This document shows, one piece after another, positions 4,044 to 51,128 of a DNA stretch of 64,000 nucleotides (position 1 is its first letter; the number at the start of each line of letters is the position of its first letter). The notes below the pieces were generated by a model that made no database searches, had not been told where the DNA came from, and saw only the letters and a list, made by a program, of their open reading frames with translations. A program made the position numbers and the translations under genes. Source of the stretch: Candidatus Aminicenantes bacterium. GTDB lineage: Bacteria; Acidobacteriota; Aminicenantia; Aminicenantales; Aminicenantaceae. The stretch lies in NCBI GenBank assembly GCA_021162615.1, contig JAGGYH010000080.1, positions 34,899 through 98,898 of the forward strand, given 5' to 3'.

Positions 4044-5369
4044 ATGAGTAATAAAAAAAAGAAAATCAGCAGAAGAAAGTTTTTAAAGAATGCATCACTG
4101 GCAGCGGCCGGCCTCGCTGCATCTCCCTACATCATACCCTCGTCTGTAATGGGGTTAAAGAAAAATACGCCTCCGAGCGATAAAATAGTCATGGCCGGAG
4201 TCGGCTTCGGAATGATGGGTATCCCAAATATGCAAAACTTTCTGAGTAAGGATGAAGTACAGTGGGTCGCTGTTTGCGATATAGACCAGAATCATCTCAT
4301 CCAAGCAAGAGATATTGTGAATGAGAAATACGGAAACAAAGACTGCGCCGCTTATCATAACTTCAGGGAACTTTGCACAAGAGAGGACATCGATGCTGTT
4401 TGTCTGGCTTTACCGGATCACTGGCATGCGATCGCTGCCATATACTGCGCCCGGGCTGGGTTTGACATATACGGAGAAAAGCCTTTCACCCATAGCCTTA
4501 GGGAAGGCCGCGCCGTATGCAATTCCATTAAACGATATAGCCGCATCTGGCAGACCGGAAGCTGGCAGAGATCTGTCGCCAATTTTCATAGAGCAGCCGA
4601 ACTTGTGCGCAATGGACGTATAGGGAAAGTGAAAAAAATCGAGGTCGGTCTTCCCCAGGGGCACCATGACTTTGCCGGAACAAAGGGCCAGGAAACAATG
4701 GGGCCTCCTCCAGCTTATCTGGACTATGACTTCTGGCTGGGCCCAGCTCCTTACGCTCCCTATTGTCCGGCACGGGTGCATAGAAACTGGAGATGGAACA
4801 TGGATTACGGTGGAGGCCAACTCATGGATTGGGTGGGCCACCATGTGGACATCGCTCACTGGGGGATGGGATATGATTCGACAGGACCTGTGGAAATCAA
4901 AGGAACCGCACAGTACGATCGCGCTGGAGTCTGGAACAGTCCGACTCGGTATTACATTGAACTCAAGTATGCGGACGGAACCCCCATGACCGTAGCCGGA
5001 GGTTATCCTGAAATCCGGAGCGGGACAAAATGGATCGGTGAACACGGGTGGGTATGGTGTGATAGGGGCGGTTTTGAAACCCATCCTGCATCACTGATCA
5101 AGGAATTTATTGGGCCGGATGAGACAAAACTATATCAAAGCAGTGACCATTATCAAAACTTTCTGGACTGCATAAAAACAAGAAAAACGACCATAACCCC
5201 TGCTGAAACAGCTCACAGATCTGCTAGTGTGGGTCACCTTGGAGTGATCGCTATTGAAACAGGACGCAAAATACACTTTGACCCGGAAACAGAGACCATA
5301 AAGAATGACCCAGAAGCTCAACGCCTTCTAAGCCGTTCCTTTCGTAAACCCTGGCAACTTCCAGAATGA
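4044..5369 (+). CDS. Gfo/Idh/MocA family oxidoreductase, Tat-exported (putative periplasmic glycoside/sugar dehydrogenase)
   Basis: Twin-arginine motif SRRKFLKNASLAAAGLAASP. Rossmann VMAGVGFGMMG, CDID, and the GEKP motif typical of this family. Confidence 0.8.
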   Translation: MSNKKKKISRRKFLKNASLAAAGLAASPYIIPSSVMGLKKNTPPSDKIVMAGVGFGMMGIPNMQNFLSKDEVQWVAVCDIDQNHLIQARDIVNEKYGNKDCAAYHNFRELCTREDIDAVCLALPDHWHAIAAIYCARAGFDIYGEKPFTHSLREGRAVCNSIKRYSRIWQTGSWQRSVANFHRAAELVRNGRIGKVKKIEVGLPQGHHDFAGTKGQETMGPPPAYLDYDFWLGPAPYAPYCPARVHRNWRWNMDYGGGQLMDWVGHHVDIAHWGMGYDSTGPVEIKGTAQYDRAGVWNSPTRYYIELKYADGTPMTVAGGYPEIRSGTKWIGEHGWVWCDRGGFETHPASLIKEFIGPDETKLYQSSDHYQNFLDCIKTRKTTITPAETAHRSASVGHLGVIAIETGRKIHFDPETETIKNDPEAQRLLSRSFRKPWQLPE

Positions 5370-5397
5370 ATGGAATCCCATATCAAAGAGGCGAAAC

Positions 5398-7377
5398 ATG
5401 AAAAGAAGAAAAAACAACATAACATATTTGATCCTAATCGGTATCCTGTTTTTTGGATTTTCAGGAGCCTTCCTTTGTTCAGCCCAGGGAAAAAAGCTCT
5501 TATCTCTTCTCAAACAGCTTGAAACATATGAAGAGGGTGAAAACGACAATCTTGTTCTTGAATTAAACGCCTATATCCGCTCTCACAGAGCCACAAAAGA
5601 ACAACGCCTGGAATGCGAACGCCAGCTCCTTTCTTTCCTCAAAACAAATGCCTCTGAAACCGCAAAAATGCTGGCCTGCCGTCACTTGAGGATCATCGGA
5701 ACTAAAGAATCAATCCCTGTACTTAAAGACATGCTTTTAAAAAAGGAAACCACGGATATGGCGAGATATGCTCTGGAAAAAATACCGGATAGGGCTTCTG
5801 ATAAGGCCCTGTTAAGTGCCCTACACAACAGCAGCGGCCTTATCAAAGCGGGGATCATTTCTTCTTTAGGGCACAGAAAAGTCTCCGAGGCGGTCCCCTC
5901 CCTTAAAGAAATCCTGAATGAAAACACCGGTTCATCCCTATCCCTTGCTGCTGCTGCAGCGTTGGGGCATATAGGAAATTCTGGAGCCGCAGATGCGCTT
6001 TCCCTTGCCCTTTCTCAGACTGAAGGAGAGCTTAAGGTTCAGGTTGCAGGGTCGCTTTTAAAATGCGCGGAGCAGTATCTTTCAGATGGAGATAATGAGC
6101 AAGCCGCGCATATCTATGACCGGATCCTTACCGCAGACCTTCCGTCATCCCTGCACAACAGTGCAGTCAGAGGGAAAATAAATGCAGCGGGTGAAGAGGG
6201 AACAAAGTACATTCTTGAAGCCCTTAAAAACAAAAAAAAAGAAATCAATCCTTCCTGTATTGAGATGATCCCGGAATGTTTTGATTCTTCAAATATCGCC
6301 AGTGTGTGCGCTCTGCTCCCTACACTGCCCCCCTCGGCAAAAGCCCAACTGATCTCAGTCCTTTCCCTGTACCCGGATAAGGGAGTGCGGCAAGCTGTCC
6401 TTGATTCAGCACAAAACAGTTCCCCAGCCGTAAGGATCGCTTCTCTGAAAACTTTAAAGCAAATAGGTGACTCATCTACGGTCGCTTTCCTCGCTCAATA
6501 TGCGGCCTCCTCCCAAGGAGAGGACCAGCAGCAGGCCCGAATAAGCCTTTTGGGGCTTAAAGGGGACGGCATTGACAGCACCATCATCTCAAACCTGAAC
6601 AGCGAAAAAACTCCTGAGATACAAATAGAATACCTCAAAGCCTTGGAACAAAGGCAGGTGTATTCAGGAAAGGATGTTGTTTTTGAAACATTAAGCTCTT
6701 CAATCCCGGAAGTACGGCTTCAGGCTATCAAATCCATAAAACAAATATCCTCTCCGGGGGACATCCCGAGGCTCCTTGAATTCCTCATAAAAACGGAAAA
6801 CGATACGGACAGGGAAGAAATGATAAACACCATTGTTTTCACAGCTTTAAAAATACAGGACCCCCTGCACAGAGGAGAGTCCGTCAAAACAGTCCTCCCT
6901 CAAGTCCAAGATCCCCGTGCCCGCTCATCCCTTTATCTTCTCCTCGGAAGGATAGGCGATGACAGCACTCTTCCCGTACTTCGGTCAGGATTGAGTGAAA
7001 AAAACGAGATGGTTCATGACTCAGTCACGAGAGCCTTTGCCAGCTGGCCCACTTCCACAGCCGCGGAAGACGTCCTCTATATTGCCGAAACATCCAATAA
7101 ACCGGAATACCGGATCCTCTGCCTCAGGGCCTATATAAGAATGGTTGAAATGGAGCCTTATCAAAGGCCTGAGGCTGCGGTCCGATCCTTAGAAAACGCC
7201 CTGAACCTCACTGAAAGGGTCCAGGAAAAGGTCTTGATTCTGGGAGCGCTTCAAAAATTCCCATGCGATCGCGCGGCAAACGTTACGGAGCGGCTCACGA
7301 AAGACGGCGATGTTGAACAGGAAGCCAAAAAAACACTTATTCTTATTAAAGATAAACTAAAGAAAGGGGGAGAATAA
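5398..7377 (+). CDS. Secreted HEAT-repeat (PBS-lyase-like) protein
   Basis: Signal peptide, then many about 30-aa repeats of the HEAT-like pattern A..ALG.IG...A...L. No CxxCH motif. AGAGG RBS before the ATG. Confidence 0.6.
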   Translation: MKRRKNNITYLILIGILFFGFSGAFLCSAQGKKLLSLLKQLETYEEGENDNLVLELNAYIRSHRATKEQRLECERQLLSFLKTNASETAKMLACRHLRIIGTKESIPVLKDMLLKKETTDMARYALEKIPDRASDKALLSALHNSSGLIKAGIISSLGHRKVSEAVPSLKEILNENTGSSLSLAAAAALGHIGNSGAADALSLALSQTEGELKVQVAGSLLKCAEQYLSDGDNEQAAHIYDRILTADLPSSLHNSAVRGKINAAGEEGTKYILEALKNKKKEINPSCIEMIPECFDSSNIASVCALLPTLPPSAKAQLISVLSLYPDKGVRQAVLDSAQNSSPAVRIASLKTLKQIGDSSTVAFLAQYAASSQGEDQQQARISLLGLKGDGIDSTIISNLNSEKTPEIQIEYLKALEQRQVYSGKDVVFETLSSSIPEVRLQAIKSIKQISSPGDIPRLLEFLIKTENDTDREEMINTIVFTALKIQDPLHRGESVKTVLPQVQDPRARSSLYLLLGRIGDDSTLPVLRSGLSEKNEMVHDSVTRAFASWPTSTAAEDVLYIAETSNKPEYRILCLRAYIRMVEMEPYQRPEAAVRSLENALNLTERVQEKVLILGALQKFPCDRAANVTERLTKDGDVEQEAKKTLILIKDKLKKGGE

Positions 7378-7468
7378 AACTTTAAAATTTTTGAAAAATT
7401 TAAGGACATGGATTAAACTATTATTCTCTCTGACAAGTTTTTTTATCCTATGAACAGGAGGTCAAATA

Positions 7469-8641
7469 ATGACCCAAATAAAAAAACAAAACAAGCATCC
7501 TAAAAAACTGACATACGGCATGGTCGGAGGAGGAGAGGGGGCTTTCATCGGAGATGTGCACCGGAAAGCCATCGCCATGGACGGAAAAGCAGAACTTGCT
7601 GCAGGGTGTTTCTCCAGGGATTTTGAGAACACCAAAAACACAGGCCAAAGGCTGGGACTGGACAGCAGCCGGTTATACCCCACATACAAAGACATGTTTG
7701 AAAAGGAGAGCCAAAGAGAGGACGGCATTGACTTTGTGGTCATTGTCACTCCTAATAACACCCACTTCTCCATTTCAAAAGCTTCCCTGGAGCACGGAAT
7801 CCATGTGGTGTGTGACAAGCCCCTCACCATATCCAGCCGGGAGTCTGAACAGCTGGCTGAGATATCAGACGAAAAAGACCTCTTATTCTGTGTGACATAC
7901 ACCTATACCGGTTACCCCATGGTCAAGCAGATGAAAGCAATGATAGCCAACGGAGAACTGGGAGAAATCCGCTTCATAAACGCAGAATACCCTCAGGAAT
8001 GGCTGGCGGCCTCTATAGAAAAAACGGGGCAGAAACAATCCGTTTGGAGAACAGATCCCTCCCAGTCCGGTGCCTCGAACTGCGTGGGAGATATAGGGAG
8101 CCATATCGAAAATATGGTCTCTTATCTAACGGGCTTAAAAATCACATCTCTTTGTGCCCGTCTGGATACCTTTGTGGAAGGCAGGATTCTTGACGACAAT
8201 GCATCCATACTGGTGGAATATGACCGCGGGGCTAAAGGCCTCTATTGGAGCAGCCAGGTCGCCATTGGACATGATAACGGACTGAAAGTCAGAATATACG
8301 GGAAAAAAGCTTCCATTGAATGGTTTCAAGAAAATCCCAACTCCTTCAGGATATCTTATCTTGATAAACCCACAGAGATCATATCGCGAGGAAGAGACAA
8401 GATGGCCCTCTCCGCAGAAAGAGTATCGCGTGTCCCAGCTGGCCACCCTGAAGGCTATTTCGAAGCCTTTGCCAATATATACAGCACATTCCTCACAGCA
8501 CTTGACAAAAAAATCAATAAAATACCTCTAAAGGAAGAGGACGCAGACTATCCGGGTATCAAAGAAGGATATCAAGGAGTGAGGTTTATAGAAAGATGCG
8601 TTGAAAGTTCCCAGAAAGGAACGGTATGGGTTGACTTTTAA
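7469..8641 (+). CDS. Gfo/Idh/MocA family oxidoreductase (cytoplasmic, no signal peptide)
   Basis: GMVGGGEGAFIG Rossmann motif and CDKPLT motif. AGGAGG RBS. Confidence 0.8.
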   Translation: MTQIKKQNKHPKKLTYGMVGGGEGAFIGDVHRKAIAMDGKAELAAGCFSRDFENTKNTGQRLGLDSSRLYPTYKDMFEKESQREDGIDFVVIVTPNNTHFSISKASLEHGIHVVCDKPLTISSRESEQLAEISDEKDLLFCVTYTYTGYPMVKQMKAMIANGELGEIRFINAEYPQEWLAASIEKTGQKQSVWRTDPSQSGASNCVGDIGSHIENMVSYLTGLKITSLCARLDTFVEGRILDDNASILVEYDRGAKGLYWSSQVAIGHDNGLKVRIYGKKASIEWFQENPNSFRISYLDKPTEIISRGRDKMALSAERVSRVPAGHPEGYFEAFANIYSTFLTALDKKINKIPLKEEDADYPGIKEGYQGVRFIERCVESSQKGTVWVDF

Positions 8642-8664
8642 TACGCACATAAAAGGAGGATAAA

Positions 8665-9660
8665 TTGGAAAGACCCGTCACATTATTTACCGGACAATGG
8701 GCAGATATGGCTTTTAAGGATATCTGCAAAAAAGCAAAAGAATGGGGTTATGACGGCCTTGAGATCGCTTGCTGGGGCGATCATATGGAAGTGAATAAAG
8801 CTGATAAAGATCCTGATTATATCAGCAGGAAAAAACAAATACTGGAAAAAAACGGGCTGAACTGCTGGGCTCTCGGAGCTCATCTGGCAGGCCAGTGTGT
8901 GGGCGACCTTTATGATGACCGCCTGGACGGATTCGTCCCGGATAAAGCAAAAGGAAATCCTGAAAAAATGAGAGCGTGGGCCATTGAGCAGATGAAAACA
9001 ACAGCCAAAGCCGCCAAAGATATGGGATGCTCGGTGGTCAACGGTTTTATGGGTTCCCCTATTTGGAAATTCTGGTATTCATTTCCCCAGACTACAGAAC
9101 AAATGATAGAAGCGGGTTTTAAAGAGATAAAAAAACTCTGGACGCCGATTTTAGATGAATTCGACCGCTACAAAGTCAAATTCGCTCTGGAGGTCCATCC
9201 CACTGAGATTGCATTTGATTTCTATACCACGCAAAAACTGTTCAATGTCTTTGAACACAGACCCACCCTCGGATTGAACTTTGACCCCAGTCATCTGGTC
9301 TGGCAGGGAATGGACCCAAAACTTTTCATACGCGAATTTTCCGATCGGATCTATCATGTCCATATGAAAGATGTGGCCGTGACCCTTGACGGAAAATCCG
9401 GCATACTGGGCTCTCACCTTCCGTTCGGCGACCTCAGAAGAGGATGGAACTTCAGGTCACTTGGCCACGGAGATGTTGACTTTGAAGAGATCATACGGGA
9501 ATTGAACGATGCCGGATACACAGGCCCTCTATCAGTGGAATGGGAAGATAACGGCATGGACCGGGAGTACGGAGCACAGGAATCTGTGGAATTTGTCAAA
9601 AGCATCAATTTTTCGCCATCAGAAGTCGCTTTTGATAAAGACATGAAAACTGAAAAATAA
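8665..9660 (+). CDS. Sugar phosphate isomerase/epimerase (xylose isomerase-like TIM barrel)
   Basis: TTG start 8 nt after AAAGGAGGA. TIM-barrel-like sequence (YDGLEIACWGDHMEV.., metal-ligand-like E/D/H pattern). Common partner of Gfo/Idh/MocA enzymes. Confidence 0.6.
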   Translation: MERPVTLFTGQWADMAFKDICKKAKEWGYDGLEIACWGDHMEVNKADKDPDYISRKKQILEKNGLNCWALGAHLAGQCVGDLYDDRLDGFVPDKAKGNPEKMRAWAIEQMKTTAKAAKDMGCSVVNGFMGSPIWKFWYSFPQTTEQMIEAGFKEIKKLWTPILDEFDRYKVKFALEVHPTEIAFDFYTTQKLFNVFEHRPTLGLNFDPSHLVWQGMDPKLFIREFSDRIYHVHMKDVAVTLDGKSGILGSHLPFGDLRRGWNFRSLGHGDVDFEEIIRELNDAGYTGPLSVEWEDNGMDREYGAQESVEFVKSINFSPSEVAFDKDMKTEK

Positions 9661-9710
9661 AGATTACCTTATTCAACGACCGGCCCGAAAAAGAGACAAG
9701 GAAAAGAAAG

Positions 9711-11084
9711 ATGTCTGACAAAAACAAACCAAAAAAATCCGGTTCCCTGTCCAGAAGAGATTTTCTGAAATCATCTGCATGGGCAGGCCTGGGAACAGCC
9801 CTTTCTTCACGGATGCTGAAAGCAAAGTCACCCGCAGCCGTACAGTCTGCCCAAGAATCATCTGACAGAATCAATATCGCTGTCATCGGAGTAGGAACTC
9901 AGGGCAGAGTGCTTGTGGAATCATGCCTCCGCATTCCTGATATCCATTTTCAAGCCATCTGCGACATATGGGAATACAGCCAAGTCTATGCCAGCCGTTA
10001 TCTGCAGAAATACGGATATAAGGTCAATATCTATGAAGACTACAGACAGCTTCTTGAAAAAGAAAAGGGTCTTGATGCAGTGATCATCGCAACCCCGGAT
10101 TGGATGCACGCTGAACACGCCAATGCCTGTATGGAACAGGGACTTCATGTTTATTGTGAAAAAGAGATGTCTAATTCCCTGGAAAAAGCACAAAGCATGG
10201 TAAGGACATCAAGGCGAACGGGAAAGCTTCTTCAGATCGGTCACCAGCGCCGGAGCAACCCCAGATACATCCATGCCATAGACAGGCTGATCCATGAAAA
10301 ACAGCTTTTAGGTCGGGTATCCCAATCATACGCTCAATGGAACAGATCTAAAAGTGATATGCTTGGCTGGCCCAAAAAATACACGATACCGCCTGAAAAA
10401 CTCGAGAAATACGGATACAGATCCATGACTGAGTTCAGGAACTGGCGGTGGTTCAAAAAATACGGTGGAGGACCTATCGTAGACCTGGGGTCTCACCAAA
10501 TAGACCTGTTTTCGTGGGTCTATGGCACCAATCCCTCCTCTGTCACCTCCTGCGGGGGAACCGATTATTATGATAAAAGAGAATGGTACGATAATGTGAT
10601 GGCGATCTATGAATTCAAGACTGTCCAAGGAACATGCCGGGCCCTTTATCAAGTCCAGACAACCACCAAATACGGAGGTTTCTACGAAGCCTTCATGGGA
10701 GATAACGGGACCATCGTGCTTTCAGAAGTCCCTCAATTCGGAAATTGGGCTATGAGAGAAGCCCATGCCCCGGAATGGGATTCCCTGGCAAAAGACGGCC
10801 TTTTGGAATCAGAAACTCCGCCTATCCAGAAAGTGGATACCAAAAACGTATTCCTTGATGTGAGGGTCACACAGGAAGCCGGCAGATGGCCGCTCCCTGT
10901 GGAACTGGCCAAACCTCCGCACCAGCCGCATCTTGAAAATTTCTTCAGCGCCATAAGAGCCGGAGCGTCTCTCACATGTCCTGGAGAAGTGGGGTATGAA
11001 ACCGCTCTAACAGTCTTAACTACAAACAAAGCTGTTGGATCACCGAGGAAGCTCAGATTTCAAAAAGAACAGTTCAAAGCATGA
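9711..11084 (+). CDS. Gfo/Idh/MocA family oxidoreductase, Tat-exported
   Basis: SRRDFLKSSAWAGLGTALS Tat motif, VIGVGTQG Rossmann motif, CEKEM motif. Stop overlaps the next start (ATGA). Confidence 0.8.
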   Translation: MSDKNKPKKSGSLSRRDFLKSSAWAGLGTALSSRMLKAKSPAAVQSAQESSDRINIAVIGVGTQGRVLVESCLRIPDIHFQAICDIWEYSQVYASRYLQKYGYKVNIYEDYRQLLEKEKGLDAVIIATPDWMHAEHANACMEQGLHVYCEKEMSNSLEKAQSMVRTSRRTGKLLQIGHQRRSNPRYIHAIDRLIHEKQLLGRVSQSYAQWNRSKSDMLGWPKKYTIPPEKLEKYGYRSMTEFRNWRWFKKYGGGPIVDLGSHQIDLFSWVYGTNPSSVTSCGGTDYYDKREWYDNVMAIYEFKTVQGTCRALYQVQTTTKYGGFYEAFMGDNGTIVLSEVPQFGNWAMREAHAPEWDSLAKDGLLESETPPIQKVDTKNVFLDVRVTQEAGRWPLPVELAKPPHQPHLENFFSAIRAGASLTCPGEVGYETALTVLTTNKAVGSPRKLRFQKEQFKA

Positions 11085-13417
11085 AACAAAAACCAATACA
11101 AATCATCTTTTTCCTTATCTTTTTAACCGGACTTTCTCCTGCTTTCGCACAGGAGAAAAAAAAGATACCCTGGGACGGCAACAGAACGGTCCCTGTGCAT
11201 AACATTCCTTTAAGGGACGAATTCAATGAAACGATCATTCCCACAGAATCTTTCCCTCTCCCTTATTCTTCCAGATACACATGCGAACCCTGCCATGCCT
11301 ACGGCCGGATAAGCCAGGGGCTTCATTTCAATGCCTTCTCTTCTGACAGGCACGGAAGACCGGGAGAACCATGGATATGGGTTGACAGGGATACAGGATC
11401 CTCAATCCCTGTTTCCTACCGGGACTGGCCGGGCGTCTTTCGTCCTGAGGAACTCGGCCTGACTTTCTGGGAATTCACCCTGCTTTTCGGAAGGCACATG
11501 ACCGGCGGAGGCGTCGGAGAGCCGGCCGTGGATGAGAGAAGCCCTGATTCAAGGTGGAATGTATCCGGGACACTTGAAATCAACTGTCTCGCCTGCCATA
11601 ATAATTCCAGAAAACAGAGCCACAGTGAATGGGCTTTCCAAATACTCCGTCAAAACTTCCGCTGGGCAGCCGTTGCTTCTTCCGCCCTTGGAGAAGTGGG
11701 AGGCATGGCTTCAAGACTATCCGGAACATGGGATATCTATGACGGATCAAACCCGGATGACTCCGAGTATGCCATTGCCCCTTATGTCCGGTATGACAAG
11801 ACCCAGTTCAACAGCAAGCACGAGGTGTTCTTTGACATCAACCACAAACCCAATGACGAACGCTGTCTTGCCTGCCACTCTGTTTCACCTGCTTCGCAAA
11901 GCCAGTTCCTGGCAGAAAGCGATGTGCACACCGCAGCAGGCATTAAATGTGCGGACTGTCATAGAAATGACATATCGCACACCATGATAAGAGGTTATGA
12001 AGGGGAATCCGAGCAATATAAAAATCCGTCTGCCTCTGATTTCACATGCCGCGGCTGTCATTTAAGAGAAAAAAAATCACAAAAACAAGGCGTCTCCTCA
12101 GGCCGGTTGGGAGCTCCTTATCCCATTCATAAAAAAATCCCCCCGATCCACATAGAAAAACTCTCCTGCACAGCATGCCACTCAGGATCCCTTCCTCAAA
12201 AGAAATTGACCCGGGTAAAGACCTCACGGGCCAACCGCTTGGGGATCTACGGTATAGCCCGCTGGGACATGGACTTTCCTGCTGTTCAGGAGCCTGTGTT
12301 TCACAGAGACTCAAACGGCAGGCTGACTCCAAACCGCCTTGTCTGGCCGAGTTTCTGGGGATGCCTTGAGGGAGAAGAGATCAGCCCATTAAGGCCTGAG
12401 ACTGTAAAAAAGGCTGCCGGTCCGATACTCTATCCGGAGTCAGAGGCCGCAGAAATCCTATCCGCGCTCTCTATGATCCCTAATCTCAAAGGCACGCCGG
12501 TTTTTGTCTCTTCCGGAAGGGTCTATGAATTAAACTTTGACGGAGAACTGGATGCCTCTGAATATTCCGGAGAGATACCTGAAGTAGGATTATTCTGGGC
12601 CTTCAAAAAAAACAATTCCCTGTCCCCCCTCATTCCTGAGTTTGACAGGGAATCAGACGCCCTTGACAGGGAAATAGAATACAGGATCCAAGATACTCTG
12701 GAAGCTTTAAATAAAGTTAAAAAACAGCTTTATGAGCCTTCCGTGATCTACGGAAACAAAGTCTATCAAATATCAGAAGGATACTTTGAGATAAAGGAAT
12801 GGAATGGAAAAACACAGGATTTCCCGAGACTCTGCTGGCTTAAAGACAATGAGATAAAAAACCTGATTTCTGAATTCAATCTGAACGCCATTAAAGAAAC
12901 AGTAGGATACTCCGAACTCCTAAGTGAAGAGCAGGTTAAAAAAATCCTTACAGCCCTTTCTGAAGCAGATGCCTCTCAAGACTCTGAAACAAACAAAGAA
13001 TATGTCTATATATCCAACGGGAAGATGTTTCGAATCAACCAGCAAGGTTCCCTGGAATCATCCGAACATCCGGCATCAGAACCTGTCTTGTGGCCCCTGG
13101 CCCATCAGGTAAGGCCTGTCCAGCAGTCCCTTGGGATCAACGGATGTTCGGACTGCCATTCATGGGATTCAAATTTTTTCTTCGCTGATGTAACGGCCGC
13201 AGGCCCTTTGAACACAAAAATTTCAGCTGAGCGCTCTGCTCATTCCTTTATGGGATTGGGGGGACTTTATCAAAAAATATTCGGCCTTTCCTTTTATGCC
13301 CGTCCATTTTTAAAGGTCATCCTCTTTATTGCCGCACTTTTTTTGGGATCTATCCTTATCATAACTTTTGTCAAAACTCTGGGCTTTCTCACAGGCCTGC
13401 TTGAGAAAAGGAGATAA
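11081..13417 (+). CDS. Heptaheme c-type cytochrome with signal peptide and C-terminal transmembrane anchor
   Basis: Seven CxxCH motifs seen in translation: CEPCH, CLACH, CLACH, CADCH, CRGCH, CTACH, CSDCH. N-terminal signal peptide and a hydrophobic C-terminal helix (FLKVILFIAALFLGSILIITFV). Translationally coupled to the upstream dehydrogenase. Confidence 0.8.
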   Translation: MKQKPIQIIFFLIFLTGLSPAFAQEKKKIPWDGNRTVPVHNIPLRDEFNETIIPTESFPLPYSSRYTCEPCHAYGRISQGLHFNAFSSDRHGRPGEPWIWVDRDTGSSIPVSYRDWPGVFRPEELGLTFWEFTLLFGRHMTGGGVGEPAVDERSPDSRWNVSGTLEINCLACHNNSRKQSHSEWAFQILRQNFRWAAVASSALGEVGGMASRLSGTWDIYDGSNPDDSEYAIAPYVRYDKTQFNSKHEVFFDINHKPNDERCLACHSVSPASQSQFLAESDVHTAAGIKCADCHRNDISHTMIRGYEGESEQYKNPSASDFTCRGCHLREKKSQKQGVSSGRLGAPYPIHKKIPPIHIEKLSCTACHSGSLPQKKLTRVKTSRANRLGIYGIARWDMDFPAVQEPVFHRDSNGRLTPNRLVWPSFWGCLEGEEISPLRPETVKKAAGPILYPESEAAEILSALSMIPNLKGTPVFVSSGRVYELNFDGELDASEYSGEIPEVGLFWAFKKNNSLSPLIPEFDRESDALDREIEYRIQDTLEALNKVKKQLYEPSVIYGNKVYQISEGYFEIKEWNGKTQDFPRLCWLKDNEIKNLISEFNLNAIKETVGYSELLSEEQVKKILTALSEADASQDSETNKEYVYISNGKMFRINQQGSLESSEHPASEPVLWPLAHQVRPVQQSLGINGCSDCHSWDSNFFFADVTAAGPLNTKISAERSAHSFMGLGGLYQKIFGLSFYARPFLKVILFIAALFLGSILIITFVKTLGFLTGLLEKRR

Positions 13418-13423
13418 ATCCAC

Positions 13424-14062
13424 ATGTTCTCAATGATAAGTTTCGTTTCCTTTATATCAGTGGCCGCATTCCTTGTCACTTTCAGTTACACAAAACAGAA
13501 AAAAGCAAAAAAAGAAAGCCCGGACAAAAAGCAAGCCCAAAATTTTTCAGACTGGCTTGTCAGCGGACTTCGTTCTTTTTTTAAAACTTCTCTTAAGAAC
13601 CGGATAAAAAAAATCAACCGGAAGCATCTCATCTCAGAACTATCCATAACTGAAAAAATTATCTGGGGAGGCCTTGTGTTCAGTTTTCTTTATCTTTTCC
13701 TGAGCGGATTCTTCTTCTCTCTCTTCAGTCTGCGCCAAATGTTTGGGGTTCCTCTTCTATTCCATATCGTCCTTGGCGGTCTTTTTGCAGTGTTTCTTTG
13801 TGTTTGTTTGTTTCTCTCTGCCGAAAAATTCAGTCTTTCCTTATCATTCAGCTTCAAAAATATCCTCTTCTGGATTTTCATGTTATCAGGCCTTTTTCTT
13901 GCCGGCACTTCTTTATGCATGATGGTCCCCCTCTTTACGTACCGAACACAGCTGTTCCTCTTCGAACTTCACAGATACAGTGCGCTCACAGCAACTCTTG
14001 CTGCTGTCCTTTTCCTGTATACGGTATTCTCAAACAATGAAAAAAGAAAAAATCGGGGATAA
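13424..14062 (+). CDS. Small polytopic membrane protein (possible b-type cytochrome or quinone-side partner of the multiheme cytochrome; function unknown)
   Basis: Five or six predicted hydrophobic helices with conserved-position His residues (FHIVLGG, ELHRYS). GGAG RBS. Confidence 0.45.
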   Translation: MFSMISFVSFISVAAFLVTFSYTKQKKAKKESPDKKQAQNFSDWLVSGLRSFFKTSLKNRIKKINRKHLISELSITEKIIWGGLVFSFLYLFLSGFFFSLFSLRQMFGVPLLFHIVLGGLFAVFLCVCLFLSAEKFSLSLSFSFKNILFWIFMLSGLFLAGTSLCMMVPLFTYRTQLFLFELHRYSALTATLAAVLFLYTVFSNNEKRKNRG

Positions 14063-14933
14063 ATCTGTTCTCCGTTTTTCCCACGAGGCCATGGGGACCT
14101 TCTTTGAAATCCTTCTCACTGATATAGACCAGGGTTACGCCCGGCAGGTCTCACAGGCAGTTTTTAATGAAATAGATAGATTAGAAAAAGAACTCTCCCG
14201 GTTCAATCCGAGCAGCGATATAGGTCAGATAAACAATCTAAAACCAGGACAGTCCTGCGCTGTTCAGGTGGACGTGTTTGAGTGCCTTCAAAAAGCATGC
14301 CGTATCCAGCATGAGACCGGCGAAGCCTTTGCCATAAATTATGCTTCCTCTCTGCGTTATTTTAAGAAGCAAAAAACAGCCGGCCTTCCGATAAAAATGT
14401 CCCGTTCCTCGGGGAGATTTAACATAACCTTTGAAAAAAGGGAGGTATTCGCAGGAACAGAAAGCCTCATGATTGACCTGGGAGGCATTGGCAAAGGTTT
14501 TGCCCTGGACAAAGCCGCAGACCTTTTGCTGGACTGGGATGTCTCCAAAGCCCTGCTCCACAGCGGCACCAGCACAGCTCTGGCTGTAGGAGCCCCCAAC
14601 GGTAAGGAAGGGTGGGCCATAGGCGTCATAGGAAATGGAGACAGTCCTTTTGTTCCCGGAAGAATCATGGTCAAAAACCGCGCTGTCAGCGGTTCGGGAA
14701 AGCAGGTAAAAGGGGAGCACATCATAGACCCCAGAACAGGAGCCCCTGCCTCAGGTCATGAGGCCGCATGGGTGTCTCATCCCTCCGCAGCCGCAGCCGA
14801 TGCCCTTTCCACTGCTTTTGTGGTGATGAAGACCCCGGAAGTGGAGACATTCTGCCTTGAAAACAAGCATCTCTGGGCTGCAGTGTTAACAAATGGAGGG
14901 CATCATAAAATTTTTAACCAAAATAGTATATAA
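14037..14933 (+). CDS. apbE: FAD:protein FMN transferase (ApbE family)
   Basis: DLGGIGKGFALDKAADLL and C-terminal ADALSTAFVV signature blocks of ApbE. Start placed at the internal ATG (MKKEKIG) rather than ORF-track 13980 to limit overlap with the upstream gene. Confidence 0.75.
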   Translation: MKKEKIGDKSVLRFSHEAMGTFFEILLTDIDQGYARQVSQAVFNEIDRLEKELSRFNPSSDIGQINNLKPGQSCAVQVDVFECLQKACRIQHETGEAFAINYASSLRYFKKQKTAGLPIKMSRSSGRFNITFEKREVFAGTESLMIDLGGIGKGFALDKAADLLLDWDVSKALLHSGTSTALAVGAPNGKEGWAIGVIGNGDSPFVPGRIMVKNRAVSGSGKQVKGEHIIDPRTGAPASGHEAAWVSHPSAAAADALSTAFVVMKTPEVETFCLENKHLWAAVLTNGGHHKIFNQNSI

Positions 14934-14953
14934 TGCCTTTAAAGGAGTGTGTC

Positions 14954-15652
14954 ATGATAAGAAAAGTTTGTATATCCCTATTCATATTGATCATCTCTCT
15001 GTCCTTTTCCGGAGCCGCATGTTTATTCGGTCAGGAAAAACAGGATAAACAGGATAAAAAAGAAGTCCTGCAACTGGAGCTTCCCAAACCCATGTTCGTG
15101 GGAACACCCACCAATATCCGCACGCCTAACCTTGAGAAAATAACAGGAAAAAGGAGGGGGCCGTTTTATGTTCCCAAAGGAACCAAGCTCCTTTCTCTCG
15201 ATAAATCCGTGACTTCCAGCGATATGATGCCCATCATAGGAGAGATCGAATACGTGACAGACGGAGAAAAATCAGGAGAAGCCGGTTATTATGTGGAACT
15301 CGGTCCCGGCTCCCAGTACGTTCAGATAGACCTCGGCGCTTCTTATGCCATCCATGCCATACTTGTGTGGCATTTCCACAGCCAGGCCCGGGTTTACAGA
15401 GATGTGGTGGTGCATGTAAGTGATGACCCTGATTTTATATCTGAAGTCAAAACCGTATTCAACAACGACCACGACAACTCCTCCGGACTGGGGATAGGAA
15501 GAGACAAGGAATATATCGAGACCAATGAAGGCAGGCTGATCGATACAAGAGGGATCAGCGGGCGCTATGTGCGCCTTTACAGCAGCGGCAACACATCCAA
15601 TGATATGAACCATTATGTTGAAGTGGAGGTCTACGGCACTGAGGTGAAATGA
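14954..15652 (+). CDS. Secreted discoidin (F5/8 type C)-like domain protein
   Basis: ATG at 14954 preceded by AAAGGAG (ORF-track start 14933 is less likely). Signal peptide, then a beta-sandwich-like region ending RYVRLYSSGNTSNDMNHYVEVEVYG. Confidence 0.5.
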   Translation: MIRKVCISLFILIISLSFSGAACLFGQEKQDKQDKKEVLQLELPKPMFVGTPTNIRTPNLEKITGKRRGPFYVPKGTKLLSLDKSVTSSDMMPIIGEIEYVTDGEKSGEAGYYVELGPGSQYVQIDLGASYAIHAILVWHFHSQARVYRDVVVHVSDDPDFISEVKTVFNNDHDNSSGLGIGRDKEYIETNEGRLIDTRGISGRYVRLYSSGNTSNDMNHYVEVEVYGTEVK

Positions 15653-17202
15653 GCAGAAAAGTCTTCGCCGGCCTGTTTGCCCTCATAGTGCTGCTGGGGC
15701 TGTTCTTTCGCTTCTTTAACCTTGATCTGCGGCCAGTGCATCATGATGAGGCGAATCAGGCTGTCAAATTCGGAGTTCTTCTGGAAAAAGGAGAATACAC
15801 ATACGATTATTTTGACCACCACGGGCCTTCTCTCTACTATATGACACTCCCTTTGGCTCTGGCCTTCACAGGAAAAGACTTTGCTGCGCTCAACGAAAGC
15901 ACCCTCCGTTTTCTTCCCGCCCTCTTCGGATCAGGACTCCTTCTTCTCCTCCTCCTCCTTAAGGGCCGATTGGGATTAAAAGCGGTTCTGTTTTCAGCTC
16001 TCTTTATAAGCCTCTCTCCCCTAATGGTCTTTTTCAGCCGCTTTTACATTCAGGAAATGCTTCTCGCCTTTTTTACCCTTGGATTTATCATATCACTCTG
16101 GCTGAGTCTGGATACAAAAAAAATTCACTGGTATATAACAGCCGGATTAATGGCTGGCTTTATGTTCGCCACAAAGGAGACCTCCCTTATCCTCTTCGGT
16201 TCCCTGCTCGGCTCATTTATTCTCTTAAAGATCTCCCATGCTTCCGGATCAAAGAGCAAACACATCTCCCATTCCCTCCTTTCCCTTAATACCTTTTTCT
16301 TTCTCGGGGCGGCCTTTGTCGTATGGCTGCTCTTTTATTCCTCCTTTTTCCATAATATGAACGGACTCTGGGACTCCATCCGTTCTTTAGGAGTCTATTT
16401 CAAGCGCGCCGGTGAGGCAGGAGCTCACGCTCATCCCTGGTATTACTATCTCAAAATGCTGGCCTTTTCCCGATACGGCAACGGACCTTTATGGAGCGAG
16501 GCTTTGATCCTGGTTTCTGCTCTTATAGGAAGTATCTCCGCATTCACTAAAAAGGAAAAGGCACGCCATGATACCTCTTTTATCCGCTTTGTCTTTTTCT
16601 ATACCCTCATTTGCACTCTTGTTTTTTCTCTTGTATCCTATAAAACTCCCTGGAACATCGTCCCTTTTTATCTGGGGATGCTGGTGCTAGCCGGGTGCGG
16701 GATTTCCTTTCTCATTGACTTGTGCCAAAAAATCTGGCTTAAGTCAGCGGCCTTATCCCTGATTTTCATCGGCATCTTTCATCTGGGCTGGCAGAGCTGG
16801 AGAGCCAATTTTGTCTTTTACGCAGACGTCCGGAATCCCTATGTCTATGCGCAAACCAGTACGGACTTTCTTAACCTGATCCGCAGAATAAACCATATCT
16901 CCAAAGTCCATCCGGAACACAAGAATATGCTGATCAAAGTGATCGCTGATCCTCATATGATATGGCCTCTACCCTGGTATCTCCGGGAATTCAAACGGGT
17001 TGGTTACTGGACAGAGGCCGAAGAGGCGGGTCCCATAGAGGGAACACCCGTTTTAATCAGCTCCATGGAACAAGCCAAACGCATCGGGCCTCTGGTCGGG
17101 GACCGGTATGTATCCGAATTTTACGGACTTAGAAATGAAGTCCTTCTATCCGTGTATATAAGACTTGATCTGTGGAACCGGTTTTTAGAAAATAGGCGCT
17201 GA
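15649..17202 (+). CDS. GT-C fold membrane glycosyltransferase (PMT/ArnT-like; polyprenol-phosphate-sugar dependent)
   Basis: Polytopic. First periplasmic-loop HHDE motif right after TM1 (FRFFNLDLRPVHHDEANQ), as in PMT/ArnT/TIGR03663-type GT-C enzymes. Start overlaps the previous stop. Confidence 0.6.
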   Translation: MSRKVFAGLFALIVLLGLFFRFFNLDLRPVHHDEANQAVKFGVLLEKGEYTYDYFDHHGPSLYYMTLPLALAFTGKDFAALNESTLRFLPALFGSGLLLLLLLLKGRLGLKAVLFSALFISLSPLMVFFSRFYIQEMLLAFFTLGFIISLWLSLDTKKIHWYITAGLMAGFMFATKETSLILFGSLLGSFILLKISHASGSKSKHISHSLLSLNTFFFLGAAFVVWLLFYSSFFHNMNGLWDSIRSLGVYFKRAGEAGAHAHPWYYYLKMLAFSRYGNGPLWSEALILVSALIGSISAFTKKEKARHDTSFIRFVFFYTLICTLVFSLVSYKTPWNIVPFYLGMLVLAGCGISFLIDLCQKIWLKSAALSLIFIGIFHLGWQSWRANFVFYADVRNPYVYAQTSTDFLNLIRRINHISKVHPEHKNMLIKVIADPHMIWPLPWYLREFKRVGYWTEAEEAGPIEGTPVLISSMEQAKRIGPLVGDRYVSEFYGLRNEVLLSVYIRLDLWNRFLENRR

Positions 17203-17203
17203 A

Positions 17204-17932
17204 ATGATTGACCTTTCACTTGTGATTCCTGCCTATAACGAAGAAAACAAAATAAAAAAAGACATAGAGAGGGCTGCGTTTTTCTTAGAGGAAAACCACA
17301 TGGTGGGAGAAATCATTGTCGTGGATGACGGAAGCCGTGACAACACCTCTGCCGCTGCTTCCAAAGCTTGCACAAATCCCTCGGTTGAATTGAAAATCAT
17401 CCGGCTTGAGAAAAACAAAGGCAAAGGATTTGCGGTTAAAACAGGAATACTGGCATCCAAAGGTGAGGTCGTGCTTTTCGCGGACAGCGGGACCTGCATC
17501 CCCTATGAAAACGCCCTTCCCTTTATCAAGAAAATCAGGGCCGGGGAAGTGGCTATCGCCCTGGCTTCTCGATATGCCAAAGGCACGGTCATCCGCAGAA
17601 ACCGTCCTCTTTCAAGGCGCATCCTTTCCAGACTCTTTCACTGGGCTGCGGTTTTTATAGCCGGCCTTCCAAGAAAAATCACAGACTCTCAATGCGGATT
17701 TAAAATCTATAACGGAGACGCTGCCAGGAAGCTCTACAGTCAGTGCGGGCTCCATGGTTTTCTTTTTGACCTGGAGATATTGATTCGGGCCCTCAGAGAA
17801 GGACACAGTATCACTGAATTTCCTGTTGAATGGACCTGCGACCTGGACTCTCGCCTGCGCCCAGCCTCTGAAGCCGGAGATATACTCAGAGACCTCTTTG
17901 AGGTAAGAAAGATAGCCAAAAAAAAGTTATGA
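17204..17932 (+). CDS. GT2 polyprenol-phosphate glycosyltransferase (Dpm1/GtrB-like)
   Basis: LSLVIPAYNEE..IIVVDDGSRDNT..EKNKGKGFAVKTG motifs of dolichol-P-mannose-synthase-like GT2 enzymes. Soluble form (no C-terminal TM). Confidence 0.75.
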   Translation: MIDLSLVIPAYNEENKIKKDIERAAFFLEENHMVGEIIVVDDGSRDNTSAAASKACTNPSVELKIIRLEKNKGKGFAVKTGILASKGEVVLFADSGTCIPYENALPFIKKIRAGEVAIALASRYAKGTVIRRNRPLSRRILSRLFHWAAVFIAGLPRKITDSQCGFKIYNGDAARKLYSQCGLHGFLFDLEILIRALREGHSITEFPVEWTCDLDSRLRPASEAGDILRDLFEVRKIAKKKL

Positions 17933-18712
17933 GATTTCGCGTATCCAGATATTTCTGTAACGAACCGGGTTTCCGTGGTCCTGCAGGGAAAGAGGAAGTT
18001 TCTCCGGATGAGCTTTGTAGGAAGGCCTTTTTTTCCACGCTGTAGGGCCCGTCAGCACCACATCATTATGGATGAGAACATGGTTGTGAAACACGGTCAT
18101 GCGGGCCGGCTCTTTTAATTGTCCGTTCTCATTAAAAAAGGGAGCCGTAAAGATAATATCAAAACACTGCCATTCACCCGGAGGACGGCACACATTGACC
18201 AAAGGAGGATACTGCCCGTACACAGCTCCGGCCATGCCGTCTGCATATGTCCTGTTCTCAAAGTTATCCAGCACCTGTACTTCATAGAGCCCCATTAAAA
18301 ACACACCGCTGTTTCCACGGCCCTGTCCTTCTCCGGATACTTCCGCAGGGGATGCCCACTCGATATGGAGCTGGCAGCTTCCAAACTCTTTTTTTGTCTG
18401 GATGGAGCCTGTTTTTTTCACGACTTCCAAATATCCGTTTTCCACCTTCCATTGAGCCTCGTTTCCTTTGCTGTCTTCCCATTGGGAAAGGTCTTCCCCG
18501 TCAAAAAGAACTTCCGCATCTGAAGGCGCAGGAACAGGAAGCATTGAAGGGCCCGGATCCACAACAGGGGGCAAGGGCCTGTCTTTGTCGTGTATTTTCC
18601 ACTTCTTTACAGAAGCCATTTCCGAATTCACTTCTTCATTCTCCTGACAGTTAATGACACCAAAGAGAAAAAAAACAAAAACCAGCAAGACAAAACCCAC
18701 TGCTTTTTTCAT
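17927..18712 (-). CDS. DUF1080 family protein (3-keto-disaccharide hydrolase-like), secreted
   Basis: Signal peptide plus concanavalin-like DUF1080 region (GNSGVFLMGLYEVQVLDNF..HNHVLIHN..HGNPVRYRNIWIREI). AAAGGAG RBS. Confidence 0.7.
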   Translation of the reverse strand: MKKAVGFVLLVFVFFLFGVINCQENEEVNSEMASVKKWKIHDKDRPLPPVVDPGPSMLPVPAPSDAEVLFDGEDLSQWEDSKGNEAQWKVENGYLEVVKKTGSIQTKKEFGSCQLHIEWASPAEVSGEGQGRGNSGVFLMGLYEVQVLDNFENRTYADGMAGAVYGQYPPLVNVCRPPGEWQCFDIIFTAPFFNENGQLKEPARMTVFHNHVLIHNDVVLTGPTAWKKRPSYKAHPEKLPLSLQDHGNPVRYRNIWIREIS

Positions 18713-18729: not shown

Positions 18730-20118
18730 TTAAAGAGACCAACCTTTTCGGTATTCAGTATGAAGAAAATTGTTGGCTTCCGGAAGGTTTTTGAATTCCA
18801 TTTTCTTCCCGTCCCATTCCAGCTTGGTGTTTTTTGCCTTTGTGGCTACGGCTACATTTCCCAAAAGCATGACTTCAGTCAAAGTCCCGGAGTATGAAAA
18901 ATCCGTAGTGGATTTTTCGCCTTTTTTAATGGCTTCCACCCATTCCTCGTGGATGCCTGGAGAGCGCGGAATTGTTTTTTCCGGTCTTTTGTATTCCTGC
19001 ATCTTTGATTCCGGAATAATACGCGGATTGTTTCCATAAGTGCTATACATTAACATCCCTTTATCACCCACAAACAATCCTCCTCCTCCGGAGTCGCCCA
19101 TCATGCGGCCATCTTCCAGTTCAGCCGGCCTGGGAGGCATGATCCCTCCGTCATACCATTTGAGGGTTACAGGCGGCATTTTCCCCCTGGCCGGGAATTC
19201 ATAAGTCACCACCTCAGCAACAGGATAAGAGTCCTTGGTGAATTTGGTGGAACTGGCCTGAACAGATGTGGGATGTCCCAGCTTTAGGGCCCAAAAGGGG
19301 TGGTCCAGTATGTGAGCTCCCATATCTCCCAGAGCTCCTGTTCCAAAATCCCACCAGCCTCTCCAGCTAAAGGGATGATAAGCCGGATGATAGGGCCTGT
19401 ATGGAGCCGGTCCAAGCCAAATATCCCATGCCAATTCATCAGGCACAGGAGGCGTATCTTTGGGAGCCTCAATGCCCTGGGGCCATATGGGCCGGTTTGT
19501 CCAGCAGTGGACTTCCCTTACATCGCCTATGGCTCCGTCCCAGATCCATTCATTGATCAGACGGCCACCTTCTCCGGCATGACCCTGGTTGCCCATCTGG
19601 CTGACGATCCCTGCTTTTTTCGCAGCCTGAGCCAGCAGCCTCGCCTCTTTTACAGTGTGGGTCAAAGGCTTTTGAACAAAGACATGCTTGCCTCTTTTTA
19701 TGGCATTCATGGCGATCACAGCATGGTTGTGATCCGGGGTCGTAACCGTGACTGCATCTATGTTTTTCTCTTTATCCAGAAGCACCCGAAAATCTTGATA
19801 CTTATTCGCTTTCTCATACATAGCCTTCTGTTCGGGAGTGTTATGTTCCGAACCCAGGAATTTGGCCATTTCCCTGTCATCCACATCACACAACGCCACA
19901 ATATTTTCTGAACTCACGCTGCGGATATCAGAAGAGCCTTTTCCTCCGACCCCGATGCTTCCTATATTTAAGGTGTCACTGGGTGCTTTATACCCGGCTC
20001 CTCCCAGGACGTGACGGGGAATAATCATAAATCCAGCGGCAGTAGCCGCGCTTCGTCCTATAAATTCTCTTCTGGTTAAGGTTTTTTTTGATTCGCCTTT
20101 TTCTTTCTTGTTTTTCAT
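18730..20118 (-). CDS. Gfo/Idh/MocA family oxidoreductase, Tat-exported
   Basis: TRREFIGRSAATAAGFMIIP Tat motif, GSIGVGGKGSSD Rossmann motif, VQKPLT motif. Start trimmed to MKNKKEK (ATG at 20118, RBS AGAAGGGTG) from ORF-track 20154. Confidence 0.8.
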   Translation of the reverse strand: MKNKKEKGESKKTLTRREFIGRSAATAAGFMIIPRHVLGGAGYKAPSDTLNIGSIGVGGKGSSDIRSVSSENIVALCDVDDREMAKFLGSEHNTPEQKAMYEKANKYQDFRVLLDKEKNIDAVTVTTPDHNHAVIAMNAIKRGKHVFVQKPLTHTVKEARLLAQAAKKAGIVSQMGNQGHAGEGGRLINEWIWDGAIGDVREVHCWTNRPIWPQGIEAPKDTPPVPDELAWDIWLGPAPYRPYHPAYHPFSWRGWWDFGTGALGDMGAHILDHPFWALKLGHPTSVQASSTKFTKDSYPVAEVVTYEFPARGKMPPVTLKWYDGGIMPPRPAELEDGRMMGDSGGGGLFVGDKGMLMYSTYGNNPRIIPESKMQEYKRPEKTIPRSPGIHEEWVEAIKKGEKSTTDFSYSGTLTEVMLLGNVAVATKAKNTKLEWDGKKMEFKNLPEANNFLHTEYRKGWSL

Positions 20119-20171
20119 AATCACCCTTCTTTCATCTAAAGTTTGAAAAATCAAGTCTAATGATAACTATA

Positions 20172-51105: not shown

Positions 51106-51128
51106 ATAACTCTCTAAAAAAAATTTAA

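Follow-up and report, generated by a model that had tools for sequence, protein, structure and literature searches.

In formate dehydrogenase-N (FdnGHI) and the NiFe hydrogenases (Hya and Hyb), a catalytic subunit exported by the twin-arginine translocation (Tat) pathway is combined with an electron carrier, anchored by its C-terminal tail, and with a quinone-reactive cytochrome b of the PF01292 family. In LacABC-type dehydrogenases, a GMC flavoprotein is accompanied by a small subunit of the Tat hitch-hiker kind and by a cytochrome with three hemes. Here we describe a gene module, gfoT-cyt-mem with the nearby gene apbE, in a 64-kilobase (kb) stretch of DNA (the window, by which we mean the whole stretch analysed) from an uncultured sediment bacterium (Aminicenantes). 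As in FdnGHI, Hya and Hyb, the product of gfoT is predicted to be exported by Tat, cyt has one C-terminal membrane helix and mem is, by transitive homology, a cytochrome b of the PF01292 family; however, a Gfo/Idh/MocA dehydrogenase that uses nicotinamide adenine dinucleotide (phosphate) (NAD(P)) takes the place of the molybdo- or NiFe enzyme, a heptaheme cytochrome c replaces the iron-sulfur carrier, and mem, unlike FdnI, keeps only the heme ligands of the periplasmic side. The three genes form a fixed triad, in an arrangement that is far beyond chance, and we propose with moderate confidence that they encode a three-subunit periplasmic sugar (glycoside) dehydrogenase:quinone oxidoreductase.

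If so, the flow of electrons from periplasmic sugar oxidation through a c-type cytochrome subunit into the respiratory chain would resemble that of LacABC and of the glucose and gluconate dehydrogenases that use flavin adenine dinucleotide (FAD). Unlike LacABC, the module contains no FAD/GMC protein; its cytochrome has seven hemes and a novel domain, and its cytochrome b is a separate subunit. Glucoside 3-dehydrogenases and LacABC-type systems belong to the 3-keto-glycoside pathway (PMC8121099). In its predicted Tat export and its Rossmann NAD(P) domain, gfoT is like the glucose-fructose oxidoreductase of Zymomonas and the periplasmic BT2158/AL3 enzymes, and it shares with the latter a context of DUF1080, TIM-barrel and cytosolic Gfo neighbours (PMC8121099; 10.1101/2024.03.25.586180). 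In these enzymes, however, a second sugar substrate serves to recycle the NAD(P), and there is no partner cytochrome. BT2158/AL3 holds NAD tightly, and its re-oxidation may be by a 3-keto-sugar or by 'specialized proteins, such as cytochromes'; the re-oxidant published for Gfo/Idh/MocA enzymes of the periplasm is another sugar molecule, a part for cytochromes being speculation only (PMC8121099; 10.1101/2024.03.25.586180).

The position of apbE beside the gene for a small cytochrome b of the membrane, with paired histidines that are conserved, recalls the ApbE flavinylation clusters (Méheust et al. 2021 PMC8238504; Huang et al. 2024 PMC11334425), in which the membrane cytochromes are of the PepSY, MsrQ or DUF4405 type; extracytosolic redox proteins occur in both. 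Unlike in those clusters, ApbE is here predicted to be cytoplasmic, there is no FMN-bind, DUF2271 or motif-bearing substrate, and the carrier is a multiheme cytochrome. The term 'Gfo' was not found in the main text of PMC8238504 or PMC11334425, and in the literature that we searched, including for Gfo/Idh/MocA enzymes paired with multiheme cytochromes, for ThuAB with cytochrome c and for cytochromes of Aminicenantes, no description of the module was found among the hits listed; an earlier note on this DNA had called the system undescribed to its knowledge. The parts and the overall architecture are of known kinds, and the combination is new.

Conservation of the gfoT-cyt-mem triad

Eleven co-directional genes, from gfo1 to GT2 (4044-17932; Table 1), are separated by intergenic gaps of at most 91 nucleotides (nt) or overlap. 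All four genes on which the earlier note had focused, namely those for the Tat-exported Gfo/Idh/MocA dehydrogenase, the anchored cytochrome with seven CxxCH sites, the small membrane protein and ApbE, were found where it had placed them, and the ATGA overlap of gfoT and cyt that it had reported is present in the sequence. The gap between cyt and mem, given there as 7 nt, is 6 nt, with an AAGGAG ribosome-binding site ahead of the mem start, and apbE starts at the ATG at 14037, overlapping mem by 26 nt. The latter start is supported by the N-termini of orthologues and by two independent gene callers, both of which rule out the GTG at 13980. The ATGA overlap, together with the 6-nt gap and the 26-nt overlap further on, suggests translational coupling. 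A scan of the region for promoters and terminators gave counts near the expectation from shuffled sequence, and no operon boundary was obtained.

We compared this arrangement with that in one genome per GTDB species. There were 136 relatives, and we retained the best 80 loci; by record title, the majority are Aminicenantes/Acidobacteriota or bear placeholder names, and 2 are from Verrucomicrobia. In all 63 of the 63 loci with enough DNA, gfoT was directly upstream of cyt, often overlapping it, and a mem open reading frame (ORF) followed cyt in 61 of 73 loci. apbE was located within 1.5 kb downstream in 44 of 65 loci; among the 42 loci with a full 10 kb of downstream sequence, 26 have it adjacent and 10 displaced, and it is missing from 6. 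An apparent gfoT-cyt fusion in one locus (L063) was rejected, the cyt frame merely extending upstream across the gfoT region in a high-GC genome.

A profile search for the cyt family among 1.84 billion representatives returned 912 clusters at 50% identity, 422 of them with E ≤ 1e-30. Seven CxxCH sites with the same spacing were present in 124 of the best 150 clusters, many of which are just 600-660 amino acids (aa) long. The close homologues of cyt are from Candidatus Aminicenantes/Acidobacteriota and are annotated merely as 'hypothetical' or 'cytochrome c3 family protein', and the named members of the wider family include Hydrogenedentota and Calditrichota. For a distant comparison, we used 80 metagenome loci of the short (600-660 aa) cyt subfamily, with 38-44% identity to the window cyt. 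A gfoT-like gene (44-57% identical) was directly upstream of the cytochrome in 49 of 53 of these loci, and a mem homologue was recognised in 53 of 60 downstream ORFs. The conservation of the neighbourhood despite shuffled gene order is strong evidence of a functional link. Lack of co-conservation elsewhere, which the earlier note had named as grounds for abandoning its proposal, is clearly not seen for the triad, and largely not for apbE: the four-gene linkage is strict for gfoT, cyt and mem and largely holds for apbE, the adjacency of which is variable.

The three subunits and the proposed route of electrons

The proposal of a dehydrogenase:quinone oxidoreductase follows from the resemblance of this architecture to those of formate dehydrogenase-N and the NiFe hydrogenases. 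In the proposed sequence of events, gfoT would fold with NAD(P) in the cytoplasm, be exported by Tat and dock on the heptaheme cyt, which would be held at the membrane by its C-terminal helix. Electrons would then pass along the heme chain of cyt to the cytochrome b mem, with its single conserved heme site on the periplasmic side, and end on the (mena)quinone pool, such that the bound nicotinamide would be re-oxidised without a sacrificial keto-sugar. Because the surrounding genes are of the 3-keto-glycoside type, a glycoside or a sugar hydroxyl is the most likely substrate. The earlier note had supposed that glycoside 3-dehydrogenases of the Gfo/Idh/MocA superfamily are known to pass electrons to cytochrome c; this did not hold, given that the known glucoside 3-dehydrogenases linked to cytochrome c (for example, LacABC) are FAD/GMC enzymes and not Gfo/Idh/MocA proteins. 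Its wiring of the dehydrogenase to a cytochrome and the quinone pool gained support from the strict co-conservation of the triad and from the nature of mem as a quinone-type cytochrome b.

The domain assignments were confirmed by Pfam and NCBIfam scans. gfoT matched PF01408 (GFO_IDH_MocA; 65.5 bits, cut-off 24), PF22725 (49.4 bits, cut-off 27) and PF02894 (43.2 bits, cut-off 22.9), and its motifs G.G..G, EKEMSN and DLGSHQID are conserved among 120 orthologues; we assign it to the Gfo/Idh/MocA oxidoreductases, with a Rossmann NAD(P) domain and the C-terminal domain of the family. The C2-type C-terminal domain that gfo1, gfo3 and gfo4 carry (for gfo3, according to the Pfam record of the gene caller) is missing from gfoT. 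The twin-arginine motif SRRDFLK matched TIGR01409 (17.0, cut-off 16.7), PF10518 scored slightly under its cut-off (20.0 vs. 22.7), and RR.F is retained in at least 90% of 67 orthologues; gfoT is accordingly a predicted Tat substrate.

The CxxCH sites of cyt (residues 68, 169, 262, 290, 323, 363 and 689) are invariant among 77 homologues, as are eight further histidines (H40, 82, 139, 283, 300, 350, 357 and 675), which together would be enough for seven bis-histidine hemes. Hydropathy indicates a signal peptide (5-24) and, near the C-terminus, a membrane helix (~733-775), after which comes a tail of basic character. With matches to PF14522 (32.6, cut-off 24.8) and PF14537 (29.2, cut-off 25), cyt is a predicted heme-binding, multiheme c-type cytochrome, and it is the sole c-type cytochrome encoded in the window. 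Only the segment ~240-370 resembles generic multiheme families (c7, c3, NrfB-like and an MtrC domain). A non-heme domain of ~270 aa (residues ~400-670), modelled by AlphaFold 2 (AF2) with a predicted local distance difference test score (pLDDT) of ~90, has no match in the PDB or Pfam. The earlier note had conceded that membership of cyt in a known nitrite or hydroxylamine reductase family would count against its proposal. We found none: cyt reaches no cut-off of the nitrite, hydroxylamine or tetrathionate reductase families (NrfB, 22.5 vs. a cut-off of 166.6; octaheme_Shew, 18.2 vs. 375), CxxCK is absent from it, and its similarity to NrfA is local only (58 residues, E=2.5e-4).

In the cytoplasmic tail of cyt (window 13385-13417), G-[LF]-[ILM]-E-K-R-R is strongly conserved across Aminicenantes orthologues; this is unusual for a plain stop-transfer sequence and may point to a contact with cytochrome b or in the cytoplasm.

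The match of the heme region of cyt to c7, c3, NrfB and MtrC-type families would also suit a different role, in which cyt and mem serve as a general periplasmic electron hub (for example, from quinol to an extracellular or soluble acceptor), with gfoT merely co-regulated or with its electrons leaving the cell. One sink could then be common to the window's two HEAT proteins and its four Tat-Gfo paralogues. We consider this quite unlikely. It is the gfoT subfamily specifically, and not the other paralogues, that is joined to cyt (63/63 and 49/53), often by overlapping codons; cyt is predicted to be anchored to the inner membrane; and the annotated parts of the neighbourhood revealed neither a porin nor an outer-membrane cytochrome, with some window ORFs lacking any match and a few not scanned.

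The window mem alone has no significant Pfam match, whereas 19 of 21 mem orthologues match PF01292 (prokaryotic cytochrome b561/Ni_hydr_CYTB; best E=1.2e-7), so that membership in this family rests on transitive homology. A profile of the orthologues matches FdnI, the cytochrome b556 of formate dehydrogenase-N (1KQF_C; E=8e-4), and the mem hidden Markov model recognises the counterparts in the distant subfamily (E down to 1.5e-36), two of which match PF01292 above its cut-off of 30.1 (39.6 and 37.6 bits). The homology of mem to the FdnI/HyaC cytochrome b family thus appears secure, and the polytopic, histidine-containing membrane protein of the earlier note is, on this basis, a cytochrome b of the quinone-reactive type. 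H114 of mem aligns with His57 of FdnI, and H183 is located six residues ahead of the His155 position; they are kept in 93% and 96% of sequences, respectively, compared to 48% for a third histidine, and the counterparts of His18 and His169 are residues other than histidine. We take His57 and His155 of FdnI to be the ligands of the periplasmic-side heme, and His18 and His169 those of the cytoplasmic-side heme. By positive-inside counting, H114 and H183 are located where helices 3 and 5 reach the periplasm, and mem probably binds one heme.

The conservation of periplasmic-side ligands only, as in quinol-oxidising sites, would also fit the same complex running in reverse, from quinol through cytochrome b and the seven hemes to gfoT, which would then reduce a periplasmic keto compound (a 3-keto-sugar or other carbonyl) as a terminal or recycling reductase. 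Aminicenantes homologues come mostly from anoxic sediments and peat, and Gfo/Idh/MocA enzymes are reversible, the BT/AL3 enzyme being re-oxidised by reduction of 3-keto-glucose (10.1101/2024.03.25.586180). Against this direction, which we regard as unlikely, speak the catabolic neighbourhood (hydrolase, isomerase, transporters) and the textbook potentials, by which reduction of NAD(P)+ (~-320 mV) from menaquinol (~-75 mV) is uphill.

Several observations weigh against a sugar dehydrogenase:quinone oxidoreductase. The mutual binding of gfoT, cyt and mem is something that we only infer. gfoT lies, by sequence, far from any characterised enzyme: its match to NF058561 (the BT_2158 equivalog) covers only the N-terminal half, with 95.2 bits at a cut-off of 750, and its nearest solved relative is DgpA, the PDB matches spanning only the Rossmann part. 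The AF2 model of the heme half of cyt is unreliable (pLDDT <50), the window mem reaches 15.4 bits against PF01292 where the cut-off is 30.1, and only two of the four heme ligands of FdnI are retained. apbE is absent within 10 kb in the 6 of 42 loci noted above, and in two loci with displaced apbE (L063 and L076) unrelated genes part mem from apbE. The chemistry also poses a difficulty: NAD(P)H in its bound form donates hydride, hemes accept one electron at a time, and a flavin would normally be needed between them. The cyt sequence has no match to FMN_bind even at E ≤ 10. The canonical ApbE acceptor motif, D-x-x-[S/T]-G-A-[S/T] (PMC12052999), does not occur in the window in ORFs of 80 aa or more, 12 conserved orthologue groups show no conserved column that resembles it, and the 80 distant loci contain two sporadic matches only; the search of the cytochrome and its neighbours for D-x-x-S/T-G-A-T that the earlier note had recommended thus turned up no acceptor.

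ApbE and the flavin

The motifs DLGGIGKG..ALD, HIIDPRTG and DALSTA of apbE align with those of solved ApbEs, the nearest being TM1553 (5.8e-17). Among 53 orthologues, DLG..GKG.ALD and DALSTAF are conserved, and of HIIDPRTG only the His and the Pro reach 90%. We assign apbE to the ApbE family of transferases of flavin mononucleotide (FMN), with intact predicted catalytic motifs. No signal peptide or lipobox was detected in the window ApbE, in ~55 close orthologues or in 23 distant ones, all with short, hydrophilic N-termini; the protein is therefore predicted to be cytoplasmic and not to flavinylate extracytoplasmic proteins in the usual way. Export or lipoprotein signals are typical of ApbEs, not universal, and cytoplasmic ApbEs are known, for example from Klebsiella (PMC12052999). 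The idea of the earlier note that ApbE flavinylates an extracytoplasmic redox partner therefore found no support, with no signal peptide in ~80 orthologues and no acceptor motif, and this signal-less subfamily is, as far as sequence can tell, an orphan without a recognisable substrate in the examined loci.

Among the 120 gfoT orthologues, no conserved Ser or Thr is in a G-A-[S/T]-like context, and scanning the conserved cluster proteins against Pfam revealed no GMC or FAD-binding domain. The cluster's sole lookalike of the flavinylation motif, with one extra residue, is 'DPSQSGAS' in gfo2 (residues 196-204, window 8054-8080), of which G201 and S203 are kept in at least 90% of 38-39 orthologues and the other positions vary. 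We rejected its 'SGAS' (residues 200-203) as an acceptor: it lies within the usual glycine-rich motif of the family, varies (AGIS, AGLS, TGIS and others) and is also missing from the cytoplasmic Gfo of the distant loci. 'DRDTGSS' in cyt (residue 102) was likewise rejected, the acceptor position being V, L, I or F in homologues, as was the cyt tail [S/T/A]-G-[LF]-[IL]-E-K-R-R, in which the S/T position is often Ala.

A preferred but weak guess is that, ahead of Tat export, ApbE attaches FMN covalently to one of the subunits at a site that is not canonical, where it could act as a converter from two-electron to one-electron transfer between NAD(P)H and heme. The cytoplasmic enzyme would then modify gfoT or another subunit and complete a wire from nicotinamide through flavin, seven hemes and heme b to quinone, to which we give little credence. 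Such a wire could possibly be the common electron sink of the paralogous periplasmic 3-dehydrogenases, via HEAT proteins.

In the window, apbE is followed by disc, GT39 and GT2 (Table 1), and these four genes are a conserved accessory set near the triad, with variable gene order. disc followed apbE in 40 of 45 loci, and GT39 followed disc in 37 of 37; disc is also present in the distant loci, and GT2 is conserved nearby. In one Aminicenantes clade, inserted genes (L063 12991-18867; L076 14881-20701) for a DUF5128 beta-propeller, glutamate dehydrogenase and a 1061-aa PPDK_N-domain protein divide the cluster into two blocks. In two distant loci examined in detail, cytochrome b is followed by a cytoplasmic Gfo/Idh/MocA and/or a transporter. 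Further on in the distant loci come disc-GT39-apbE, in that order, with GT2 on the other strand, and the whole block is inverted in L148 and L164. apbE is thus tied more tightly to disc-GT39-GT2 than to the triad.

This raises the possibility that ApbE is unrelated to the triad, and that apbE-disc-GT39-GT2 is a separate envelope-modification unit, for example for Ppm1/Pmt-like glycosylation of proteins or glycans; the ApbE-like enzyme would then have a different target in the cytoplasm or work as a pyrophosphatase of FAD, and the unit would be needed only for the maturation of exported proteins or be a mere neighbour. The block formed by apbE, disc and GT39 does travel together when the inserted genes split it from the triad, the disc and GT39 counts above point in the same direction, the triad lacks a flavinylation motif, and ApbE is predicted to be cytoplasmic. 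We nevertheless find such independence less likely than not. In two subfamilies with differing gene order, the block stays within ~10 kb of the triad, even when inverted, and this speaks for a functional connection; in the window, moreover, the apbE and mem genes overlap, and no alternative target of ApbE is visible in the examined loci.

Gene surroundings and significance

The surroundings of the triad include 3-keto-glycoside pathway genes, for a DUF1080 hydrolase, the BT_2158-like gfo3, a TIM barrel and ThuA; these are the very families on which the oxidative pathway of glycoside breakdown, as published, relies (PMC8121099; 10.1101/2024.03.25.586180). In the distant loci, DUF1080, several BT_2158-like dehydrogenases and HEAT proteins were found upstream, with DUF1080 directly upstream of gfoT in 24 of 40.

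Table 1. Genes of the window in and around the module, with coordinates, strand and domain evidence.
Feature	Position	Strand	Description
gfo1	4044..5369	+	Tat-signal Gfo/Idh/MocA, C2 type; PF19051 118.6 bits; RRKFLK motif; heads gene row
HEAT-repeat protein, periplasmic	5398..7377	+	PF13646 127.4 bits; signal peptide, hydrophobic N-terminus 7-31
gfo2	7469..8641	+	cytoplasmic Gfo/Idh/MocA; PF01408, PF22725, PF02894; no signal sequence
xylose-isomerase-like TIM barrel	8665..9660	+	sugar isomerase/eliminase type; PF01261 148.1 bits
gfoT	9711..11084	+	Tat Gfo/Idh/MocA (NAD(P)-type) dehydrogenase; proposed catalytic subunit
cyt	11081..13417	+	778-aa heptaheme c-type cytochrome; signal peptide, C-terminal anchor; proposed electron-transfer subunit
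mem	13424..14062	+	212-aa, five-helix membrane cytochrome b, PF01292 (FdnI/HyaC) family; proposed quinone-reactive subunit
apbE	14037..14933	+	FAD:protein FMN transferase family; no signal peptide; PF02424 140.9 bits
disc	14933..15652	+	signal-anchored F5/8-type-C (discoidin/CBM32-like); PF22633 29.5 bits
GT39	15649..17202	+	GT39/GT-C membrane glycosyltransferase (PMT_2; Agl23-like); TIGR03663 203 bits (cut-off 126); PF13231
GT2	17204..17932	+	polyprenyl-phosphate sugar synthase-like; PF00535 84.9 bits; AglJ/PpgS-like matches below cut-offs
DUF1080	17927..18712	-	3-keto-disaccharide hydrolase; signal peptide; PF06439 142.6 bits
gfo3	18730..20154	-	Tat Gfo/Idh/MocA nearest BT_2158 glycoside 3-dehydrogenase; NF058561 550 bits full length (cut-off 750)
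second Tat-Gfo/Idh/MocA (C2) and 730-aa periplasmic HEAT pair	27466-23970	-	PF19051 453 bits
periplasmic ThuA	27641-28387	+	signal peptide; divergent from second Gfo(C2)-HEAT pair
GT2-like ORF	50018-50998		judged from N-terminal sequence only
sulfatase	53407-55413		Pfam match
second PMT_2 membrane glycosyltransferase	55420-57054		Pfam match

The window holds three Tat-Gfo paralogues besides gfoT, as well as two HEAT proteins. gfo1 and its HEAT neighbour are conserved upstream of the triad, including in Verrucomicrobia, and HEAT is present in the distant loci too. The second Gfo(C2)-HEAT pair mirrors that at 4044-7377, and the recurrence suggests a dedicated partnership between the HEAT proteins and the exported Gfo(C2) dehydrogenases, possibly as periplasmic scaffolds. 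In the Verrucomicrobia locus L077 (93-8575), a FAD_oxidored protein and three Tat-type Gfo(C2) paralogues precede the HEAT gene, such that several dehydrogenases cluster around one cytochrome module.

disc is the most conserved protein of the cluster, with 55-90% identity across related loci and 65-66% in the two Verrucomicrobia loci, and its database matches number at least 8000 proteins at E ≤ 1e-5; on a Planctomycetota contig (L081), it adjoins a 990-aa HEAT-repeat protein. GT39 (15649-17202) has an HHDEA stretch just past helix 1, where PMT-type enzymes bear their catalytic Asp-Glu, and with GT2 (15649-17932 for both) it forms a predicted pair of the Ppm1/Pmt-like kind. GT2 and GT39 genes are also reported from the Alistipes fosmid in which the oxidative glycosidase cluster AL1-AL5 was found (10.1101/2024.03.25.586180), and their presence both there and here may be more than coincidence. 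Further envelope-sugar genes are located elsewhere in the window (50018-57054).

Periplasmic Gfo/Idh/MocA enzymes drive the recently described oxidative breakdown of glycosides and hold NAD(P) too tightly to exchange it; the gfoT-cyt-mem module is a concrete candidate answer to the question of how such exported enzymes are re-oxidised. It is widespread, with the 912 cytochrome clusters including named members from Aminicenantes, Verrucomicrobia, Hydrogenedentota and Calditrichota, and it exposes a chemical puzzle, namely a hydride carrier that reduces one-electron hemes. A flavin wire, if true, would make the module the first of a new class among respiratory sugar dehydrogenases, and its flavinylated subunit would likewise open a new class among the substrates of ApbE. 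If the complex works as proposed, the oxidation of sugars in the periplasm would be a direct source of electrons for respiration in bacteria that abound in sediment and peat and are usually called fermenters.

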